Assembly (NCBI GenBank): GCA_021817345.1
Contig: JAKAVC010000099.1
Coordinates: 18,338-82,337, forward strand
Direction: 5' to 3'
DNA length: 64,000 nt
Source of the DNA: Deltaproteobacteria bacterium
Lineage (GTDB): Bacteria; Desulfobacterota; Binatia; Binatales; Binataceae
Shown here piece after piece: positions 2,657 to 46,780 of the stretch; the first letter of the stretch is position 1; each line of letters begins with the position of its first letter. A program made the position numbers and the translations under genes. A model generated the notes under the pieces. It was given only the letters and a program-made list of their open reading frames with translations, made no database searches and had not been told where the DNA came from.

Positions 2657-3688
2657 TCAGGCCAAATCCCAGTATTTGCCGACGCTCTGAAGCGCCCGCT
2701 CGATTATCGGCATCACGCGGTCGCCTCGCGGCGGATTCTGAAGGGGTTCGTCGGCCTCGCGCCCGAATTCCTCGAGCACCGCCCTGCCCGAGTTGGCGAG
2801 CGCTTCGAGATCGTAGCCGCCTTCGAGCACCGCGACGACCTTGCCGCCGCAGCTCTCAGCGGCAAGCCGCCTGACCCGGCGCGCCATCTGCTCGAAGCCC
2901 GTCTCCGTCACCTCCATCGCGCCGAGCGGGTCGCGGAAATGGCAATCGAATCCTGCCGACACCAGGATGAACTCGGGCTTGAAGGCACGCCCGATCGGCA
3001 GGATCAGCTCGTCGAAAACGCGAAGATATTCGGGGTCGCCGAACCCCGCGGGCATCGGCGCATTGACCGTGTAGCCGATACCCTCGCCCGCGCCCATATC
3101 GTAAAGCGAACCGGTTCCGGGGTAGTGCGGATACTGATGGGTCGAGACGTAGAGCAGGTTTTTTGACTTGTAGAAGATGTCTTGCGTGCCGTTGCCATGA
3201 TGGAGGTCCCAATCGACCACCATCACCCTCTCAAGCCCTCTCTTGAGCAGCCACGAGGCGGCTATCGCGACGTTGTTGAAGAAGCAGAAGCCCATCGCGC
3301 GATTGGGAAGCGCGTGATGCCCGGGCGGACGGACGATCGCAAAGGCATTGTCGGCTCCGCCTTCGAACACCGCCTCGACCGCTGTAAGCGCGCCGCCCGC
3401 GGCGAGCAACGCGGCGCTGTACGTGTCGCGCGAGGTGTGAGTGTCGGCGTCGAAATCGTAGCGGTCCACGTGCGAGGTCTTCTCGACCAGCGCGATATAG
3501 TCGCTGGTGTGGCATAGCGCGATTTCCTCGAGCGTGGCTTCGCGCGGCGGGCAGAAGTCAAGTCCGGCGCGCTCGAGGCTTTCCGCCATCTCAATCATAA
3601 CTCTCACACGCTCGGGGCGCTCGGGATGGGCCCGGCCGGCAAAATGCTTCAGATAACGGCGGTCGGTTACGATTGCGGTTTTAACCAT
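2657..3688 (-). CDS. Histone deacetylase / acetoin-utilization AcuC family amidohydrolase
   Basis: HDAC motifs GFCFFNNVAIAA, HHGNGTQ and YPGTG are present. The track start at 3697 is GTG; the ATG (MVKTAIV) at 3688 is more likely. Confidence 0.8.
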   Translation of the reverse strand: MVKTAIVTDRRYLKHFAGRAHPERPERVRVMIEMAESLERAGLDFCPPREATLEEIALCHTSDYIALVEKTSHVDRYDFDADTHTSRDTYSAALLAAGGALTAVEAVFEGGADNAFAIVRPPGHHALPNRAMGFCFFNNVAIAASWLLKRGLERVMVVDWDLHHGNGTQDIFYKSKNLLYVSTHQYPHYPGTGSLYDMGAGEGIGYTVNAPMPAGFGDPEYLRVFDELILPIGRAFKPEFILVSAGFDCHFRDPLGAMEVTETGFEQMARRVRRLAAESCGGKVVAVLEGGYDLEALANSGRAVLEEFGREADEPLQNPPRGDRVMPIIERALQSVGKYWDLA

Positions 3689-3776
3689 CGTTGACACCCC
3701 GACGGGCGATCATGTTTGATTATAGACGGGAGCTGCGTCGACAGGCACGCGCGCCGTCGCTTTCAGGAAGCGGAAT

Positions 3777-4058
3777 TTGGGCATTACCGAAATAATACTG
3801 ATTCTTGTCGTGGCGCTGATTGTCGTGGGCCCCGAGGGCCTGCCCGATTTCCTGCGGGCCGCTGGCAAGATAGTGCGCGAGTTGCAATCCGCCGGAAACA
3901 CCGTGATGCGCGAATTGACCGAGGCGGTCGATGAGCCGCGCCGCGCGCTCAACGAACTCAATCCTCTTGCTCCTAATTCCGGCACGCGAAGTCCGAAGCA
4001 GAACAACTCCGGGCCGGAGCCGGAGAAGAGTCCGGAAGATACGCCAGAGCAACACTAA
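3777..4058 (+). CDS. tatA: Twin-arginine translocase TatA/TatB-family protein
   Basis: The N-terminus MGITEIILILVVALIVVGPEGLP is an N-terminal TM helix plus hinge typical of TatA/B. The start is TTG, preceded by AGGAAG, and the C-tail is amphipathic/acidic. Confidence 0.75.
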   Translation: MGITEIILILVVALIVVGPEGLPDFLRAAGKIVRELQSAGNTVMRELTEAVDEPRRALNELNPLAPNSGTRSPKQNNSGPEPEKSPEDTPEQH

Positions 4059-4067
4059 ACTCTGTTT

Positions 4068-4919
4068 GTGACAGACGAGGAAACGAATCTCCCGACGGAA
4101 TTGCCGGAGGGCGTGGAACTCCCGGACCCCGAGCATATTCCCGACGGCCCCGACGAAGCGCGGATGCCGATAATCGAGCATCTGCGCGAACTCCGCACCC
4201 GCCTGATCCGCGCGCTTATCGCCTTGGTGGTCGGCTTTGCGGTCGCCTATCTGATTTCGGACCAGCTCTTCGCGGCGCTGACCTGGCCGATTCGCGAAGT
4301 CTCGCACGGCAAGGTAATGCTGATCGGAACGGGCGTCGGCGAGGCGTTTTTCACCAAGATAAAGGTGGCGCTGGTCGCCGGGCTGTTCATCGCCAGTCCT
4401 GCGGTATTTTACGAAATCTGGAAGTTCATCGTCCCCGGCCTCTACAAGTCCGAACGGAGGATGGCGGCGCCGTTCATCATCTCGGCGACGATATTCTTCA
4501 TCCTTGGCGGATATTTCTGCTGGGCGGTTGTGTTCAAGGTCGGCTACACGTTCTTCCTGTCGGAGTACGCGAGTATCGGCGTCACCCCCACGATTCGGAT
4601 TAGCGAGTATCTGGCGTTCTCCACGAAGCTGATGCTCGCCTTCGCGCTCACCTTCGAGATGCCCATTTTCGCATACTTCCTGACCCGGCTCGGGATCATC
4701 GACCATCGCATGATGCTGCGCCAGGTCAGCTACGCGGTTCTCGGCATCTTCGTGGTGGCCGCGATGCTGACGCCGCCGGACATGGTCTCGCAGTTCCTGC
4801 TCGCGATACCGCTTTTGCTCCTGTACGCGCTGAGCGTCGGCGTGTCGTATTTGTTCCGGCTGCCTCACGAAGAACCGGCGCCGGCCGCCGAAGGTTCCGA
4901 CGGTCCCGAAGTTTCCTGA
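4068..4919 (+). CDS. tatC: Twin-arginine translocase subunit TatC (copy 1)
   Basis: The sequence MPIIEHLRELRTRLIRALIALVVGFAVAY... has the six-TM TatC architecture and an acidic N-terminal extension. Confidence 0.9.
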   Translation: MTDEETNLPTELPEGVELPDPEHIPDGPDEARMPIIEHLRELRTRLIRALIALVVGFAVAYLISDQLFAALTWPIREVSHGKVMLIGTGVGEAFFTKIKVALVAGLFIASPAVFYEIWKFIVPGLYKSERRMAAPFIISATIFFILGGYFCWAVVFKVGYTFFLSEYASIGVTPTIRISEYLAFSTKLMLAFALTFEMPIFAYFLTRLGIIDHRMMLRQVSYAVLGIFVVAAMLTPPDMVSQFLLAIPLLLLYALSVGVSYLFRLPHEEPAPAAEGSDGPEVS

Positions 4920-5055
4920 GCGTCTCGTCGTTCCCCGGAAAAGCCATAACGCCCTTAAGATGAGCGAGCATGAGCGGGCGCGACAAGCGCAAGCGCCCGT
5001 CGCGGACCGAATCTGGCTTACCCACAGGGCCGGGCGTAACATTTACCTTGGGTAA

Positions 5056-5090
5056 GGGAATTTGGGGCATTTTCGAAAATGGTGCTGAAC
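5056..5090 (+). pseudogene. Vestigial tatA 5' end (RBS plus first codons) left between the tatC paralogs
   Basis: gggaatttggggcattttcgaaaatggtgctg matches cggaatttgggcattaccgaaataatactg at 3770-3803 (the tatA RBS and start). The reading frame is lost immediately after. Confidence 0.4.
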
Positions 5091-5133
5091 CCTCCCCAGA
5101 TCTGAACTCGAAAGCGCAGTAACGCTTCAGCCC

Positions 5134-5973
5134 GTGGAGAACGAGGAAAGCAACCAGACCGAGCCTGCGGAGAACGTCGAGTTCCTCGAAGGCGAGCAAT
5201 CACCCGACGGTCCCGACCTGGCGCGCATGCCGATACTCGAGCATCTGCGCGAACTCCGCACCCGCCTGATCCGCTCGCTTATCGCGCTGGCGGCCGGCTT
5301 TGCGGTCGCCTATGCGATCTCCGATCAACTGTTCGCCGCGCTCACTCTGCCGCTTCGCGAAGTCGCGCACGGCAAGCTGCTCCTTATCGGAACCGGCGTC
5401 GGCGAGGCGTTCTTCACCAAGATAAAAGTGGCGCTGATAGCCGGCCTGTTTATCGCAAGCCCGGCGGTCTTCTACGAGGTCTGGAAATTCATCGCGCCCG
5501 GACTTTACAAGTCCGAGCGCCGGATGGCGGCGCCGTTCATCCTGTTCGCCACGGCTTTCTTCATCCTGGGCGGCTATTTCTGCTGGGCGGTGGTGTTCAA
5601 AGTCGGCTACGCGTTTTTCATCCACGAATACGCCACGATTGGCGTGACGCCCACGATTCGAATCAGCGAATACCTGGCGTTCTCGGCCAAGCTGATGCTC
5701 GCCTTCGGGGTCACGTTCGAGATGCCTATCTTTGCCTACTTCCTGACCCGCCTGGGCATGATCGACCATCGGATGATGGTGCACTACTTCAAATATGCAT
5801 TTCTTGGCATCTTTGTCGTGTCCGCGATTCTGACCCCGCCCGGGTTCGTCGCGCAGTTCCTGCTCGCGATACCACTTCTCCTCCTGTACGCGGTCAGTAT
5901 AGGAGTCGCCTACGTGTTTCGTTTGCCCGAGGGCGAAACCGAACCGGCCGCCTTGGGACCGGGAGTCTCCTGA
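5134..5973 (+). CDS. tatC: Twin-arginine translocase subunit TatC (copy 2, tandem paralog)
   Basis: It is about 85% identical to copy 1 across the TatC core (MPILEHLRELRTRLIRSLIALAAGFAVAY...). The N- and C-terminal tails differ. Confidence 0.9.
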   Translation: MENEESNQTEPAENVEFLEGEQSPDGPDLARMPILEHLRELRTRLIRSLIALAAGFAVAYAISDQLFAALTLPLREVAHGKLLLIGTGVGEAFFTKIKVALIAGLFIASPAVFYEVWKFIAPGLYKSERRMAAPFILFATAFFILGGYFCWAVVFKVGYAFFIHEYATIGVTPTIRISEYLAFSAKLMLAFGVTFEMPIFAYFLTRLGMIDHRMMVHYFKYAFLGIFVVSAILTPPGFVAQFLLAIPLLLLYAVSIGVAYVFRLPEGETEPAALGPGVS

Positions 5974-6007
5974 ATCCTGCGGCACTGAACCTTCGAAAGG
6001 GAAAAGA

Positions 6008-8404
6008 ATGGCCATTATAGATGAGTTTCCGAAGGCATACGGCGCTCCTGGTATTCCCCCTCGGTGGACCCGTAGCGCAAAGGATATCGTCGGCACCGCC
6101 TATTCGACCTCGAGTCGCGTGTGGTTCACGGCTTCCAAGGGCGTCTTGAACGAAATTTATTTCCCGACGATCGACATGCCGCAGGTGCGTGACGTCCAGT
6201 TCCTGGTGACCGACGGCGAAACCTTCTTCCACGAGGAACGCCGCAACCTCGAAAGCCGCACCGAGTATATCGGCGAGTACGGACTTGGCGTGCGCGTCAC
6301 CATGAACGACCCGGAGGGCCGCTACAGCTTCATCAAAGAAGTTATCTCCGACCCGCACAACTCGTGCGTTTTGATCGACGCGCGGCTCGAAGGCGACCCG
6401 GCTTTCCTCGCGCGTCTTCAACTGTACGTGCTGGTCGCCCCGCATCTTGGGGTCGGCGGATGGGGCAACAACGGCAACTTCGCGCGAATCCACGGGCGCG
6501 AGTTCCTGACCGCGCACAAGGAGGGCGTATGGCTGTCGGTCGCGGCCACGGTTCCGTTCGCCAAGCGTTCATGCGGATACGTGGGTACGACCGACGGATG
6601 GCAGGATCTCGCGACCAACTTCAGGCTCGACCATGAATTCGCCTCGGCCACCGACGGCAATATCGCTCTAATCGGCCAGTTGGACCTGAGCGAAACGCGT
6701 TCGTTCACGCTCGGACTTGGCTTCGGCCGCACCCTCCATCGCTCGGTCACAACCCTGTTCCAAGCGCTCGGAATTCCGTTCGGCAACCATCGCGCGCGTT
6801 TCCTTGAGCAATGGAGCCGCGCCTGCATGCATTTCCTGCCGCTCGAGCGCTTTTCCAGCGACGGCGGATGCCTTTACCGGCGAAGCCGCGAACTGTTGCT
6901 CGCGCATGAGGACAAGAGCTACCCGGGCGCGATGATCGCCTCGCTAAGTATCCCGTGGGGCGAGGCCAAGGGCGACGAGGATCTCGGCGGCTACCACCTG
7001 GTATGGACGCGCGACATGGTCAACAGCGCGACCGGCTTGCTTGCCGCCGGCGACCCGCAGACCGGGGTCCGCGCGCTCATCTACCTGGCCTGTTCGCAGA
7101 AGCCCGACGGCGGTTTCCCGCAGAACTTCTGGATCGACGGCGAGCCCTACTGGAACGGGATACAACTCGACGAGGTCGCCTACCCGATAATGCTGGCCTG
7201 GCGGCTGCATCGGTACGAGGCGCTCCGGGAGTTCGACGCGTACCCGATGGTCAGGATGGCGGCGCGCTACCTGATTGAAAACGGCCCGGCCACGCCGCAG
7301 GAACGATGGGAGGAAAACAGCGGCTATTCGCCCTCGACGCTTGCCTCCAATATCGCCGCGCTGATCTGCGCCGCCTCCCTGGCGCTGGAACGCGGCGACG
7401 AGGCAACCGCGCAATATCTCGGCGAATACGCGGATTTCCTCGAGTCGCACGTCGAGGCCTGGACCGTCACCAATAACGGCACGCTGGTTCCCGGCATCAA
7501 GCGCCATTACGTGCGCATCAACCCGGTAGACCCAAACAATCCCGAACCCGACGAAGATCTCGACCGCGCGACGGTCCTTATCCACAACCGACCGCCCGGA
7601 ACGCAATCGGTCTTTCCCGCGGCCGAGATCGTCGATGCTGGTTTTCTCGAACTGGTCCGCTACGGAATCCGCAAGGCCGGCGACCCGCTGATAGAGGACT
7701 CGCTCAAGGTGATCGATGCGGCGCTGCGCGTGGATTTTCCCGCCGGCCCGTGCTGGCGGCGCTACACACACGACGGCTACGGCCAGCGTGACGACGGCGG
7801 ACCGTACCTGGGATGGGGACGGGGACGGCCGTGGCCGCTTCTGACCGGCGAGCGCGGGCATTACGAACTAGCCGCGGGGCGCGACCCGAAGCCTTATATC
7901 CGCGCGATGGAGGCGTTTGCGAATCATACCCAGCTTCTGCCCGAGCAGATCTGGGACCAACCCGACATCCCCGATCAGCTCCTCTTCTATGGGATGCAGA
8001 CCGGAGCGGCGACGCCGCTTATGTGGGCGCACGCGGAGTATATCAAGCTGCTCCGCTCGGCCGCCGACGGCAAAACTTTCGACCTGATTCCCGAAGTCGC
8101 CGAGCGCTACCAGTCGCGTCGGCGGCGCAAGACTATCGAGTTCTGGAAGTTCAACCGCCATGTCCGTTCGCTCGCGCCCGGCACGACGCTCAGAATCCAG
8201 GCCGGGGCGCCGTTCATCCTGCATTGGACGCGCGACGACTGGCGCTCGAGTATCGACACCTCCGCGACCATGACTCCGCTCGGGATCGGCCACGTCGATA
8301 TCGAGGTATCGCGCTCGCAGCGCGCGCCGATCCGCTTCACATTCTACTGGAAGGAAACCGGCCAGTGGCAGAATCAGGATTTCGCCGTCGAAGTCATGGC
8401 ATAG
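6008..8404 (+). CDS. Glycoside hydrolase family 15 (glucoamylase / glucodextranase-like), 798 aa
   Basis: WTRDMVNSATGLL, QKPDGGFPQNFWIDGEPYWNGIQLDEVAYPI and the (alpha/alpha)6 catalytic region are present, with an N-terminal beta-sandwich region. ATG 6008 has an RBS and there is no signal peptide. Confidence 0.85.
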   Translation: MAIIDEFPKAYGAPGIPPRWTRSAKDIVGTAYSTSSRVWFTASKGVLNEIYFPTIDMPQVRDVQFLVTDGETFFHEERRNLESRTEYIGEYGLGVRVTMNDPEGRYSFIKEVISDPHNSCVLIDARLEGDPAFLARLQLYVLVAPHLGVGGWGNNGNFARIHGREFLTAHKEGVWLSVAATVPFAKRSCGYVGTTDGWQDLATNFRLDHEFASATDGNIALIGQLDLSETRSFTLGLGFGRTLHRSVTTLFQALGIPFGNHRARFLEQWSRACMHFLPLERFSSDGGCLYRRSRELLLAHEDKSYPGAMIASLSIPWGEAKGDEDLGGYHLVWTRDMVNSATGLLAAGDPQTGVRALIYLACSQKPDGGFPQNFWIDGEPYWNGIQLDEVAYPIMLAWRLHRYEALREFDAYPMVRMAARYLIENGPATPQERWEENSGYSPSTLASNIAALICAASLALERGDEATAQYLGEYADFLESHVEAWTVTNNGTLVPGIKRHYVRINPVDPNNPEPDEDLDRATVLIHNRPPGTQSVFPAAEIVDAGFLELVRYGIRKAGDPLIEDSLKVIDAALRVDFPAGPCWRRYTHDGYGQRDDGGPYLGWGRGRPWPLLTGERGHYELAAGRDPKPYIRAMEAFANHTQLLPEQIWDQPDIPDQLLFYGMQTGAATPLMWAHAEYIKLLRSAADGKTFDLIPEVAERYQSRRRRKTIEFWKFNRHVRSLAPGTTLRIQAGAPFILHWTRDDWRSSIDTSATMTPLGIGHVDIEVSRSQRAPIRFTFYWKETGQWQNQDFAVEVMA

Positions 8405-44020: not shown

Positions 44021-46780
44021 CTAATCGCCCGCCGAGTCCGGCGCGCCCTGCCCGAGCTTGTTGCCAAGCTTTTGCATCTCGCTGCCAAAGGTGGACCAGT
44101 CGCCAGCCTTGAGCGCCTCGATCGCTCGATTGTAGTAACCGGCCGCCTCCCGCAGGTCCGCGGGAGGCGGCGCGCTGCGGGCAATCGCCTTCGGTGTCGT
44201 GGGCGCAACCTTCGCTATCGTCGGCGCAGCCGGCCCCGCCGGCATTGTGAACAGCGCGTTAAGCGTCGAACTGAGCGTCTGACCCATGACCACCTGGTCG
44301 CTGTATGACGCGATTACACGCTGAAGCTCGGGCAATTGCCCGTTCTCGGCGCGCAGGTAAAGCGGCTCAACATAGAGCAGCGAATCCTCGATGGGAATGA
44401 CGAGCAGGTTTCCCAGCACCACCTTGGAACCCATCTGGTTCCACAGCGAGAGCTGGCGCGAGATGTCGGGACTCTGATTGATGCGCGCCTGGATCTGATA
44501 GGGACCGTAAAACAGCCGGTCCTTCGAGAATTCGTATTCGAACAGATGGCCGTAGTCGCTCCCGTCGCATCGCGCCGCCAGCCACGCGATCATGTTGTCG
44601 CGTCCCTGCGGCACCATCGGAAGCATCAGCATGTACTCTTCATGCTTCTCCCCGGGCAGCCGCATGATCACGTAATACGGCTGCATCGGGACCGTTTCGC
44701 CCTGGTAATTCTCGCGCGGGAAATTCCACTGGTCCTCTCGGTTATAGAAGACCTGCGGATCGGTCATGTGGTAGATGCGGTAGATGTCGGCCTGGACGAG
44801 AAACATGTCCTCGGGGTAGCGGATATGCGCGCGCAACCCGTCGGGCATCATGGCGAGCGGCTTGAACAGGGTCGGGAAGATCCGCTCCCAGGTCTGGATT
44901 ATCGGGTCGGTCGGGTCCGCGACGTAAAGGGTGACCGTGCCGTTGTAGGCATCCACGACCGCCTTGATGGAGTTGCGGATATAGTTGATACCGTCGGGAT
45001 TGCGCTGCGAATAGGGATACTCGTTGCTGGTCGTGTAGCCGTCCACGATCCAGAACAGCCGTCCGCCGATGGTCACGATATACGGGTCGTGGTCCAACGT
45101 CAGGAACGGCGCAAGCGTGGAGACGCGCTCCATTATATTGCGCCGTATCATGATGCGGCTTTTGGCGATGATATTCCCGGTGAGGAGAAGATTGATGTCG
45201 CGATAGTAGTACGAAAAGAGCAACCTGCGGAAAAATCCGCTGACCGGCACTCCGCCCGTGCCCTTGTAGAACGCGAACGCGTTGTCGGCGCCGATCGGAT
45301 AGTCGAACTCGGGCGTCGCCCCGTCAACCACGCAGTATACCGGGCTTCCCTCGCCGAAATAGATCGCGGGTTGCTTTATCTTGATACCCACGTCGGAGTC
45401 GGCCGGAATATCCTTTACATAGAAGATCGGCAGGCCTTCGGAGTCCTTCTTGTTGACCGGACTCATCACGATCCCGCTTCCGTGGGTGAACTTGAGATGG
45501 CGGTTAACCCAGGTCTGCGCGTTCTGCGGGAGCAGGTCCACGTTGAGCTCGCGCGCCGACAGCATCACCTCGGTGTACTGTCCGTTTATCCAGTAGCGGT
45601 CGATGTCAACGTCCTTGAAATTGTAGTAGAGGCGGATTTCCTGGAGCTGGCGATAAGTCGCAAGCAGCGGCCGGGGATCCCAGAGCCGGATGTTCTTGAT
45701 GGTCGGCTCGTCTTGCGTGAGCGAGGTGGGCGTGAGCTTTCCTTTCCCGCCAAAGCTCTTCACGTCGAACTTGTTGACGTCGTAGGCTTGCCGCGTCATC
45801 TGGATATTGCGCTCGATATAGGGCTTTTCGATCCGAAGCTCGTCCGGCTTGACCCATAGCCTCTCGATAACCGGCGCGGCGAAGCTCAGCAGCAGAGACG
45901 GCCCGAAGACGATCACGAAAGCCAGCGCCGGAAGCCTGATCCCGCGCTCTCTTACGTTTGCGACGCATAACCCGGCGGCGACGATCGAGAGCGCGATCAG
46001 CACCCACAATCCCGGTTGCCACAATACGTGATCGACGTAGCGCAGTCCGAAGACCACCCCGTTGCCGTGCAGCAGAAGGTCGTAGCGCGAGATCCAGTAG
46101 CTCATCGCGCGCTGCAAAAAGAAAATTCCGACCAGCACCGAAAGATGCGCCGCCGCGCCCGAGCCTATCCGCGGGGGCGACTCGCGAAAATCAAGCGCCC
46201 CGCGTATCCAGTAGATTCCTCCCGCCATCGCGGCCGCCAGAAACAGGATGAGCAGGAAGAGATCGCGCAGATCGCCAAGCAGCGGAAGCGCAAATACATA
46301 AAATCCGACGTCGCGGCCGAAGGCGTGATCGCTCACGTGAAACGGCAACGCGTAAAACGCCTTCAGATACGTGGCCCATCCCGCGGCTTCGCCCTGCGCC
46401 GGCAGGATCGCGAGCACCGCCGCGATTATCAGCGCGAGCAGCCGCCACGGAATCCGATCGCTGAACGCGCGAATCAGCTCGGGCAGGTTTATCTCGGTCA
46501 CCTCGTCGTGCCGGCGCACGACGTGGAGCCTTTCGCGCTCCTGGCTCTGCCCAAGCGCGACCAGCGCGTTTACAGCGATCGTCACGAACGCGACCACCCA
46601 TACCACGGTGAAGATCGAGACCTGGGCGGCGACGATTCGCTTGAAGACGTCGCGATAGCCGAGCGAAGTAAACCACAGAAAATCGACGAAGAACTGATCC
46701 GCGGTGCCAAGGACGATGAGCGCGGCGATTACAATCGCCGCGATTCCGAACAGGATAAGCCGCGAGCGCATCCGTGTCAT
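44021..46780 (-). CDS. UPF0182-family large integral membrane protein
   Basis: It is 919 aa, with an N-terminal multi-TM region (FFVDFLWFTSLGYRDVF) and a large extracytoplasmic domain, matching the UPF0182 layout. Confidence 0.8.
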   Translation of the reverse strand: MTRMRSRLILFGIAAIVIAALIVLGTADQFFVDFLWFTSLGYRDVFKRIVAAQVSIFTVVWVVAFVTIAVNALVALGQSQERERLHVVRRHDEVTEINLPELIRAFSDRIPWRLLALIIAAVLAILPAQGEAAGWATYLKAFYALPFHVSDHAFGRDVGFYVFALPLLGDLRDLFLLILFLAAAMAGGIYWIRGALDFRESPPRIGSGAAAHLSVLVGIFFLQRAMSYWISRYDLLLHGNGVVFGLRYVDHVLWQPGLWVLIALSIVAAGLCVANVRERGIRLPALAFVIVFGPSLLLSFAAPVIERLWVKPDELRIEKPYIERNIQMTRQAYDVNKFDVKSFGGKGKLTPTSLTQDEPTIKNIRLWDPRPLLATYRQLQEIRLYYNFKDVDIDRYWINGQYTEVMLSARELNVDLLPQNAQTWVNRHLKFTHGSGIVMSPVNKKDSEGLPIFYVKDIPADSDVGIKIKQPAIYFGEGSPVYCVVDGATPEFDYPIGADNAFAFYKGTGGVPVSGFFRRLLFSYYYRDINLLLTGNIIAKSRIMIRRNIMERVSTLAPFLTLDHDPYIVTIGGRLFWIVDGYTTSNEYPYSQRNPDGINYIRNSIKAVVDAYNGTVTLYVADPTDPIIQTWERIFPTLFKPLAMMPDGLRAHIRYPEDMFLVQADIYRIYHMTDPQVFYNREDQWNFPRENYQGETVPMQPYYVIMRLPGEKHEEYMLMLPMVPQGRDNMIAWLAARCDGSDYGHLFEYEFSKDRLFYGPYQIQARINQSPDISRQLSLWNQMGSKVVLGNLLVIPIEDSLLYVEPLYLRAENGQLPELQRVIASYSDQVVMGQTLSSTLNALFTMPAGPAAPTIAKVAPTTPKAIARSAPPPADLREAAGYYNRAIEALKAGDWSTFGSEMQKLGNKLGQGAPDSAGD

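Follow-up and report, generated by a model that had tools for sequence, protein, structure and literature searches.

The locus considered here raises the question of why a bacterium should carry two tatC genes side by side, and of whether the second is a young duplicate, a relic or a working gene. The window (the whole stretch of 64,000 nucleotides that was analysed) comes from an uncultured member of the Binataceae, a family in which the gene order HDAC–tatB–tatC–GH15 is found in ∼75 of 80 species, with a gap of 13–140 bp between tatC and the GH15 gene. A second tatC, or a gap widened to 270–430 bp, was seen only in a clade comprising the window's genome and L088, L082/83, L084, L085/86, L002, L087 and L027. 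This clade is a small, roughly genus-level group within the family. The features of the locus are listed in Table 1.

Table 1. Features of the tandem tatC locus, in window coordinates
Feature	Position	Strand	Description
tatB-like gene of the TatA/B family	3777–4058	+	93 aa, TTG start; no other small Tat subunit gene is intact here
tatC1 (conserved copy)	4068–4919	+	283-aa ORF; begins 9 nt past the tatB stop codon
Spacer between tatC1 and tatC2	4920–5133	+	214 bp, without an intact gene
Candidate promoter or protein-binding motif	5010–5042	+	AATCTGG-N17-GCGTAACAT; conserved across the clade
tatB2 vestige	5057–5078	+	RBS-like purines, TTG at 5062–5064, ∼5 codons (GIFE..)
tatC2 (intact second copy)	5134–5973	+	279-aa ORF; 34 bp before the GH15 gene
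Probable gene-conversion tract with tatC1	5212–5316	+	tatC1 counterpart 4149–4253; contains a 38-nt identical run
TatC2 codon Gly237	5842–5844	+	Position of E. coli D211, in the TM5–TM6 periplasmic turn

That the locus contains two tandem tatC genes, as the earlier note had read it, is borne out. Both ORFs are intact, and their products match PF00902 (TatC1, 230.4 bits, E = 2.6e-68; TatC2, 221.3 bits, E = 1.5e-65) and score above the TIGR00945 cut-off of 132.7 bits (197.6 and 190.0 bits, respectively). TatC2 could be aligned to residues 7–231 of Escherichia coli TatC and to residues 1–228 of Aquifex TatC, and the tandem pair is present in three independent assemblies. The 34-bp distance from tatC2 to the GH15 gene corresponds to the ancestral tatC–GH15 spacing. 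The GC content of tatC2 is 0.60, against 0.62–0.66 in its surroundings.

The small gene upstream of tatC1 had been labelled tatA, but it resembles tatB more. Its product matches the Pfam TatA_B_E superfamily model (PF02416, E = 7e-11), and the best of the NCBIfam models was that for TatB (TIGR01410), at 53.6 bits, short of its cut-off of 56.5; the TatA/TatE model TIGR01411 gave 37.1 bits, where 53.9 is required. The protein sequence also carries Glu5 and a GPEGLP motif. On these features the gene looks more TatB-like than TatA-like, and it is called tatB here. A TTG or GTG start is near-universal for the tatB-like gene across the Binataceae.

Full-length identity is 79% both for the two TatC proteins (217/276) and for their genes (663/840 bases), and it is 83.2% in core residues 33–264. 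These values are lower than the ∼85% that had been claimed, both over the full length and in the membrane core, and they lie above the 60% below which the earlier note would have given up its reading. Nucleotide identity is 0.57–0.65 at both ends of the genes and 0.72–0.95 in the core, in agreement with the divergence that had been described for the tails at both termini. Percent identity is a poor guide to age in this case, since TatC proteins throughout the family share 65–80% identity.

Synonymous divergence gives a clearer answer on age. tatC1 and tatC2 have diverged to a dS of 0.70 in the core and of 0.88 outside the tract of Table 1, and tatC1 is at dS 0.31–0.68 from its most distant orthologs in the clade; the genes of L027 lie at dS ∼1 from those of the window. 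Since the inter-copy dS equals or exceeds that of tatC1 orthologs within the clade, the duplication is not recent. In codons 28–62, dS between the copies is 0.149, against 0.877 elsewhere, and within this tract the distance from tatC2 to the tatC1 genes of the window and L083 equals the distance between those two tatC1 genes. The low-dS tract with its 38-nt run is probably the product of gene conversion between the tatC copies. The tandem arrangement, the 83% identical core and the long identical stretches, including this run, would suit a recent event caught in progress, with deletion of the second tatA as the first step of divergence, as the earlier note had it. This we find scarcely credible. 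A recent duplication would show an inter-copy dS far below that of sister orthologs, and sisters without the arrangement, but dS between the copies is 0.7–0.9, gene conversion best accounts for the local low-dS tract that contains the long identical run, all members of the clade already have a decayed tatB2, and seven relatives have tatC2 remnants (five sister genomes) or orthologs (intact in L027). The duplication is old, and the ongoing process is loss, not gain.

The losses can be read directly from the related genomes, seven of which have tatC1 orthologs of 85–99% identity in the same synteny. An intact tatC2 is found in the window's genome, in its 99% relative L088 and in L027. Five sister genomes have only fragments of it, located between tatC and the GH15 gene and showing four different deletion maps. 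The remnants correspond to residues 1–38 plus 266–278 in L082/83, 1–∼50 in L084 (tblastn HSP over residues 23–49), 206–236 plus the C-terminus in L087, and 176–212 in L085/L002; those of L083, L084 and L087 are closer to the window's tatC2 than to any tatC1. The 270–430-bp ‘intergenic’ gaps of the sister genomes are tatC pseudogene remnants, which is relevant to annotation. In an NJ tree of 232 columns, TatC2 grouped with L027b with a bootstrap of 0.75, against 0.24 for L027a with L027b, and the eight clade sequences were monophyletic with a bootstrap of 0.60. TatC2 and L027b also share R→K and D→G changes at columns that are otherwise 96–100% conserved, and the spacer of L027 is homologous to the window's and has the same bipartite motif. 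A single duplication shared with L027 has moderate support in this tree.

The second small gene can be followed in the spacer, where a match to the start of the upstream gene had been pointed out. GGAATTT-GGGCATTACCGAAA (3772–3792) and GGAATTTGGGGCATTTTCGAAA (5057–5078) agree at 19 of 22 bases with one indel, and the similarity fades past 5078. The frame of the vestige is broken by a 1-nt insertion, and the vestige agrees with the tatB-like family consensus TTGGGCATTTTCGAAATA. Taken alone, the match is marginal (p ∼0.005–0.007 within the spacer). Its local alignment score of 12 compares with 8.3 ± 1.0 for shuffled sequence and was reached by 7 of 1000 shuffles, and a 5′ DNA profile for tatA/B, drawn from 81 other Binataceae loci, gave it 4.0 bits, equivalent to E = 2.7 for the whole window and ∼0.005 for the spacer only. 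It becomes convincing because longer remnants stand at the homologous position in L085/L002 and in L027. In the former, a profile of the same kind with close relatives left out gave a 42-nt nhmmer match (14.7 bits, E = 0.0011) that is the best non-gene match in ∼57 kb. The L027 spacer holds a collinear remnant of TatB residues 16–68, ∼190 bp long (tblastn E = 7e-6), with a DNA local score of 17 against 10.4 ± 1.3 and a maximum of 16 in 500 shuffles. These longer remnants are also pseudogenes, and tatB2 has decayed in every member of the clade. The proposal that the ancestral block consisted of a small Tat gene plus tatC, with later loss of the second small gene, is in this way upheld.

The window's spacer is homologous to those of the relatives. 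Its first ∼137 bp showed no significant similarity to the flanks of the first unit or to the GH15 5′ end, and the 50-aa ORF at 4970–5122 had no Pfam match. Scans of 3600–6100 gave no promoter-like site for sigma-70, no RNA family of Rfam, and terminator-like hairpins only within coding sequence. The two blocks of the bipartite motif and the 17-nt spacing between them are nearly invariant in 8/8 clade genomes, including those that lack tatC2, and the 17 nt themselves are variable. The motif is a candidate promoter or protein-binding site that may serve tatC2 and the GH15 gene. The idea that the motif recurs as a regulatory site was rejected: it occurs once in the window, and 3-mismatch matches are at chance level. 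Rejected too was a GH15 5′ fragment at 4920–5056, picked out by eye (GCCCTTA-AGATGAG against GCCATTATAGATGAG), as the right-hand boundary of the duplication: the local alignments are at chance, with 309 (window), 141 (L083) and 679 (L027) of 1000 shuffles attaining the score, and a GH15 5′ DNA profile had no match in any spacer. A duplicated promoter, that is, homology of the spacer to the region upstream of tatB1, was not significant (p = 0.085–0.93), and a search of the spacers for pieces of HDAC or GH15 protein gave only weak matches (best E = 0.02), none repeated across relatives. A possible second tatA-like gene at ∼46,706–46,754 on the minus strand (nhmmer E = 0.29) is the N-terminal TM helix of a 919-aa membrane protein.

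Selection on TatC2 was assessed from dN/dS values (NG86 estimates). Against its ortholog L027b, TatC2 has a dN/dS of 0.136 at dS ∼1.1; tatC1 against its own orthologs gave 0.06–0.10, making the TatC2 value ∼1.5–2.5-fold higher. Between the window and L088, codons 55–279 of tatC2 differ by 7 synonymous and 0 non-synonymous changes, and the N-terminal 54 codons by 10 non-synonymous and 2 synonymous. TatC2 deviates at 4 of 134 conserved columns, all in TM5–P3–TM6, the changes falling at E. coli TatC positions 194, 211, 212 and 214. The signal-binding residues and the buried Glu (E. coli E15, R17, P48, F94, E103 and E170) are identical in TatC1, TatC2, L027a, L027b and 85/85 other Binataceae TatCs. 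On these patterns, TatC2 looks to be maintained by selection.

One of the changes concerns the highly conserved Pro–Asp pair of the P3 turn (E. coli P210–D211; role taken from PMC3712464), which is Pro–Asp in TatC1 and Pro–Gly in TatC2, the PPG of TatC2 being aligned to PPD 209–211 of E. coli TatC (chain 9dzz_A). Asp occupies the D211 position in 164/167 database homologs and in 85/85 other Binataceae TatCs compared; L027b is the one sequence of this comparison that shares the Gly of TatC2. According to the passage of PMC3712464 that cites Buchanan et al. (2002), replacement of D211 by Ala in E. coli TatC abolishes function and destabilises TatBC. By comparison, the natural Asp→Gly change in TatC2 has persisted under purifying selection, and the same change is present in L089, of another Binataceae lineage, in a tatB-linked tatC that is the only tatC on its 8.4-kb contig. 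L089 suggests that Asp→Gly at this position is tolerated. The APPGPVPMF turn is identical in TatC2/L027b and the L089 TatC but encoded by different codons, so the resemblance is convergent. The idea that L089 is a lineage in which tatC2 replaced tatC1, or carries a chimera, was rejected, as its TatC is 66–71% identical to TatC2/L027b, against 72% to TatC1, and nowhere along the gene closer. In terms of the E. coli P3-loop and polar-cluster mutants, the TatC2 changes adjoin the polar cluster T208/Q215, at which the TatB/TatA TM helix docks.

We consider it probable that an old tandem tatB–tatC duplication was followed by decay of tatB2 and by loss of tatC2 in the sisters, and that tatC2 was kept as a working isoform in the window's species. 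In the clade's common ancestor, a block of tatB-like gene plus tatC was tandemly duplicated within HDAC–tatB–tatC–GH15. The second tatB was lost early, leaving ∼190 bp in L027, 42 nt in L085/L002 and ∼22 nt in the window, and at least three sister lineages lost the second tatC, each to internal deletions of its own. tatC2 stayed whole, under purifying selection, in the window's species and, as a separate case, in L027. The sequences themselves show the duplication and its age, the decay of tatB2, the losses in the relatives and the signature of selection. TatC2 has a complete twin-arginine signal-binding site, and its paralog-specific changes are in the TM5–P3–TM6 turn by the TatB/TatA docking site; it would have to work with the one TatB that serves TatC1, and likewise with a TatA encoded elsewhere. 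Its gene is probably transcribed by read-through from tatB–tatC1 or from the conserved motif in the spacer. TatC2 is most likely a still-working second TatC isoform, with expression and function that we infer from its sequence.

Several observations count against this account: tatC2 has been lost in most sister lineages and is thus dispensable; TatC2 lacks the Asp whose substitution by Ala inactivates E. coli TatC; its dN/dS is above that of the tatC1 orthologs, with mostly non-synonymous changes to L088 in the N-terminal 54 codons; the scans gave no promoter, and terminator-like hairpins only inside genes; and the tree backs a duplication shared with L027 only moderately. Independent loss in at least three related lineages, the missing near-invariant Asp and the fast-evolving N-terminal tail, together with the loss of the cognate tatB2, would fit a functionless relic, a neutral duplicate not yet disrupted and heading for the deletion seen in the sisters. 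We regard this as unlikely, although it is the strongest competitor, given a 279-codon ORF that is intact in three assemblies, the dN/dS of 0.136 maintained across dS ∼1.1 from L027b, recent changes in codons 55–279 that are all synonymous (7 to 0), just 4 of 134 conserved columns altered, and the sole tatC of the L089 contig with Gly at the same position, suggesting tolerance. Somewhat less likely again is that TatC2 is a distinct receptor, without the P3 Asp and with a remodelled docking turn, that either mixes with TatC1 into TatBC oligomers and alters their assembly or works with TatA only, without TatB. If so, TatC2 would be kept only in lineages needing that property, and the APPGPVPMF turn of L027b and L089 would be a recurrent alternative solution in the translocase.

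In Bacillus subtilis, each TatC retains its own TatA and has distinct substrates. The earlier note had pointed to such substrate-dedicated translocases, and TatC2 could be the receptor of a second one, in the manner of TatAdCd/TatAyCy. Long-term retention under purifying selection in two lineages would be in keeping with this, as would the specialised roles proposed for extra tatC copies (PMC3827258). By analogy, the Binataceae genome has more than one TatC, and the unit that was duplicated originally paired a small subunit gene with tatC. The analogy fails in that the second small-subunit gene is dead, so that no second TatA/B gene stands alongside and only a ∼22-nt frameshifted vestige precedes tatC2; the signal-binding residues are the same in both copies, and the changes are concentrated instead in the TatB/TatA docking turn and the tails; tatC2 is dispensable in sister species; and a TatB-like gene with tatC is of the Gram-negative type. 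A dedicated translocase therefore seems improbable to us. More doubtful still, to the point of being very improbable, is insertion of tatC2 and the tatB2 remnant by horizontal transfer from another Binataceae lineage. The TatC2 core is 78–81% identical to some other Binataceae TatCs, not far from the 83% to TatC1, but the nearest sequences are TatC1 and its orthologs of the same clade, the eight clade sequences group together (bootstrap 0.60), the head-to-tail tandem preserves the ancestral tatC–GH15 junction, and the GC values of tatC2 and its surroundings mark no clear compositional break.

Duplication of tatC within a lineage has parallels elsewhere. Lineage-specific tatC duplications have been described in Geobacter lovleyi, Colwellia psychrerythraea, Cytophaga hutchinsonii, Ca. 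Solibacter usitatus and Ca. Nitrospira defluvii, where clustering of same-genome TatC paralogs in trees points to internal duplication; this is uncommon, at ∼5% of species overall and ∼2% outside the Bacilli (Simone et al. 2013, PMC3827258). As in those cases, the two TatC paralogs of one genome group together; unlike them, the Binataceae copies lie directly in tandem, their duplicated partner gene can still be recognised as a pseudogene, sister species have repeatedly lost the second copy, and the copy that survives is without the conserved P3 Asp. The locus is an ordinary case of gene birth and death, not a system of a new kind; it is a clean natural example for a duplicated membrane-translocase receptor. 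For Tat specialists, a persisting TatC without the ‘essential’ P3 Asp and with an intact signal-binding site is a possible probe of the role of that residue in TatBC assembly. As with E. coli tatA/tatE, a Tat component was duplicated and the second copy is largely redundant and dispensable; unlike tatE, an unlinked small-subunit duplicate, here the TatC duplicate persisted and the small-subunit duplicate was lost.

Feature coordinates at the tat locus of the window
Feature	Position	Strand	Remarks
Histone-deacetylase-family (HDAC) gene		-	upstream of the tatB-like gene
TatA/B-family gene, tatB-like	3777-4058	+	93 aa, TTG start
tatC1	4068-4919	+	283 aa; begins 9 nt past the stop codon of the tatB-like gene
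tatC1-tatC2 spacer	between 4919 and 5134	+	214 bp
tatC2	5134-5973	+	279 aa
GH15 glucodextranase-like gene	6008-8404	+	34 bp past tatC2

Both TatC1 and TatC2 passed the Pfam and NCBIfam TatC models. The best model for the small Tat gene was TatB (TIGR01410, 53.6 bits, just missing the cut-off of 56.5; TatA/E gave 37.1), and its protein carries a TatB-like GPEGLP hinge, so that 'tatB-like' is the better name. Across the ∼80 Binataceae species (loci L002-L081 and window 3777) its start codon is nearly always TTG or, less commonly, GTG, ATG being very rare; a few loci, e.g. L067, L056 and L011, carry one more codon at the start. A protein identical to TatC1 is encoded on DAHVPY010000018.1 (assembly GCA_027318025.1), and the named homologs belong to metagenome-assembled genomes of Candidatus Binataceae. 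On the opposite strand, long ORFs of 440 and 298 aa at 3720-5042 (-) and 5200-6096 (-) overlap tatB/tatC1 and tatC2; they are probably no more than the antisense frames, poor in stop codons, that high-GC coding DNA typically has.

The two copies are 79% identical in protein (217/276) and in DNA (663/840), rising to 83.2% in the protein core (residues 33-264), lower than the ∼85% put forward in the earlier note. The N- and C-terminal tails are, as described there, diverged, both far more so than the core. The duplication had also been taken for a recent event, which the synonymous divergence contradicts: NG86 dS between tatC1 and tatC2 over the core is 0.70, compared with 0.31-0.68 between the window tatC1 and its clade orthologs. 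Between the two copies, dS is 0.149 in codons 28-62 and 0.877 elsewhere, and in codons 28-62 tatC2 is as near to the tatC1 genes of the window and of L083, a related locus, as those two are to one another. A short gene-conversion event is indicated, and it also accounts for the long identical run noted earlier. The species L027 has two intact tandem tatC genes, and in neighbour-joining its second copy, L027b, grouped with the window TatC2 with a bootstrap of 0.75, as against 0.24 for grouping with its own first copy, L027a, and 0.03 for TatC2 falling within the TatC1 clade. TatC2 and L027b also have in common an R→K and a D→G substitution, at columns whose conservation across 85 other sequences is 96% and 100%, and the window and L027 share a homologous spacer with the motif AATCTGG-N17-GCGTAACAT. 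Thus, the duplication is older than the split between L027 and the window clade, every comparison of an L027 gene with a window gene giving a dS of ∼1. The tandem pair is a derived trait of the clade, yet not a recent one.

The match between the spacer and the small gene's start, from which a duplicated block of small gene plus tatC had been proposed, does exist (5057-5078 against 3772-3792, 19/22 bases with one indel) but is marginal in the window itself, its score being reached by 7 of 1000 shuffles. A 5′-end DNA profile of the small gene, made from 81 other Binataceae loci, gave only 4.0 bits here (E = 2.7 against the whole window, ∼0.005 with the spacer alone as search space). The window by itself suggests the vestige without proving it; the relatives settle the matter. 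In L085/L002, a profile made without any close relative found a 42-nt match at the homologous point of the spacer (14.7 bits, E = 0.0011), the top non-gene match in ∼57 kb, covering the TTG, the four bases just before it and 12 codons (MCICEMALFLALA). The 358-bp spacer of L027 holds a start-like LGMLEII and, beyond it, the collinear remains of TatB residues 16-68 (tblastn with the whole locus as target, E = 7e-6; DNA local score 17, shuffles 10.4 ± 1.3, maximum 16 in 500). The window vestige is closer to the family start consensus (TTGGGCATTTTCGAAATA, MGIFEI) than to the window's own tatB (MGITEI). Together, the remnants and the consensus match show that the duplicated ancestral unit had a small gene, as the earlier note had proposed.

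When one genome per GTDB species was scanned, 80 Binataceae loci came up, nearly all with a single tatB-tatC pair. The order HDAC (-)-tatB-tatC-GH15 (window 2657-8404) is kept across almost the whole family, with GH15 beginning mere tens of bases past tatC; this tight spacing suggests that the glycoside hydrolase is co-transcribed with the Tat receptor genes. The nearest orthologs of TatC1 (99, 94, 89, 88 and 86% identity) lie in loci of the same gene order as the window. An intact tatC2 is also present in L088, the 99% relative. L082/L083, L084, L085/L086, L087 and, from the species scan, L002 are without a second tatC ORF and show a gap of 270-430 bp ahead of GH15, against a tatC-GH15 distance of just 13-140 bp in ∼75 other species. 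These gaps are tatC2 wreckage. The L082/L083 gap aligns to the window spacer and tatC2 codons 1-38, then skips to codons 266-278; L084 retains the spacer and the first ∼50 codons, L087 codons 206-236 and the C-terminus, and L085/L002 codons 176-212. The L083, L084 and L087 remnants match the window tatC2 better than any tatC1. None of the four deletion maps is derivable from another, and given the TatC1 tree there were at least three independent inactivations. By eye, the L083 deletion junction (equivalent to window ∼5248/∼5921) seems to join sites with a 3-nt microhomology, TGC.

The window and L088 differ at 1-2 positions per 100 bp over ∼6.8 kb, with 67 differences within ∼4900-5300 (L088 3833-4230), a block comprising the spacer and the first 54 tatC2 codons. 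The window spacer resembles its counterpart in L083, a more distant relative, more closely (87%) than the one in L088 (80%), which suggests that a diverged lineage supplied this tract through recombination or conversion; alternatively, the MAG assembly may have mixed strains.

Several measures speak for maintenance of tatC2. dN/dS is 0.136 between the window tatC2 and L027b and 0.06-0.10 among tatC1 orthologs; against L088, codons 55-279 of tatC2 show seven synonymous and no non-synonymous changes. TatC2 deviates at only four of the 134 columns with a family conservation of 90% or more (median sequence 2, L027b 12). All four are within TM5-P3-TM6 and correspond to E. coli positions 194, 211, 212 and 214. 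When TatC2 is aligned to E. coli TatC structures, Gly237 falls on D211. The D211A substitution is cited in PMC3712464 (from Buchanan et al. 2002) as abolishing function in E. coli and destabilising TatBC, and the TatB/TatA helix docks at the polar cluster T208/Q215 close by (PMC10197872). Both copies retain the signal-peptide-binding residues E15, R17, P48, F94 and E103 as well as the buried E170. At the level of sequence, this argues against altered substrate recognition by TatC2 and favours an interface with the small subunit that is changed or relaxed, as would fit the loss of the second tatB. The L089 contig (JGI Ga0673045_0015833, 8.4 kb), from a different Binataceae lineage, carries a tatB-linked tatC (845-1666) as its sole tatC, with no GH15 downstream. 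Its product shares 66-72% identity with each of the four clade TatCs and has Gly at the D211 position and the turn APPGPVPMF exactly as in L027b, encoded by different codons, an apparent convergence on an Asp-less P3 turn. The Asp→Gly change is therefore probably tolerated in the family.

Extra tatC genes occur in ∼5% of bacterial species, and several Gram-negative cases have been put down to internal duplication (PMC3827258); the tandem pair is a further such case, its interest lying in a well-resolved loss history and a natural Asp-less TatC variant. The analogy once drawn with Bacillus TatAdCd/TatAyCy fails, since the defining feature of those systems, a cognate TatA per TatC, is absent for tatC2. 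Most probably, TatC2 acts as a second receptor subunit working with the single TatB. It would be partly redundant with TatC1, and this would explain why most sister lineages were able to lose it.

Scans of the tat locus revealed no sigma-70 promoter, no Rfam family and no convincing terminator. tatC2 is probably transcribed by read-through or from a conserved spacer motif. This motif, AATCTGG-N17-GCGTAAC(A/G)T, lies at window 5010-5042, L027 2381-2413 and homologous positions in L082-L088. It looks like a candidate promoter or protein-binding site, although it conforms to the consensus of neither sigma-70 nor sigma-54. Its blocks are nearly invariant and the 17-nt spacing is invariant in 8/8 clade genomes, while the intervening bases vary; in L087 it is retained despite deletion of the adjoining sequence.
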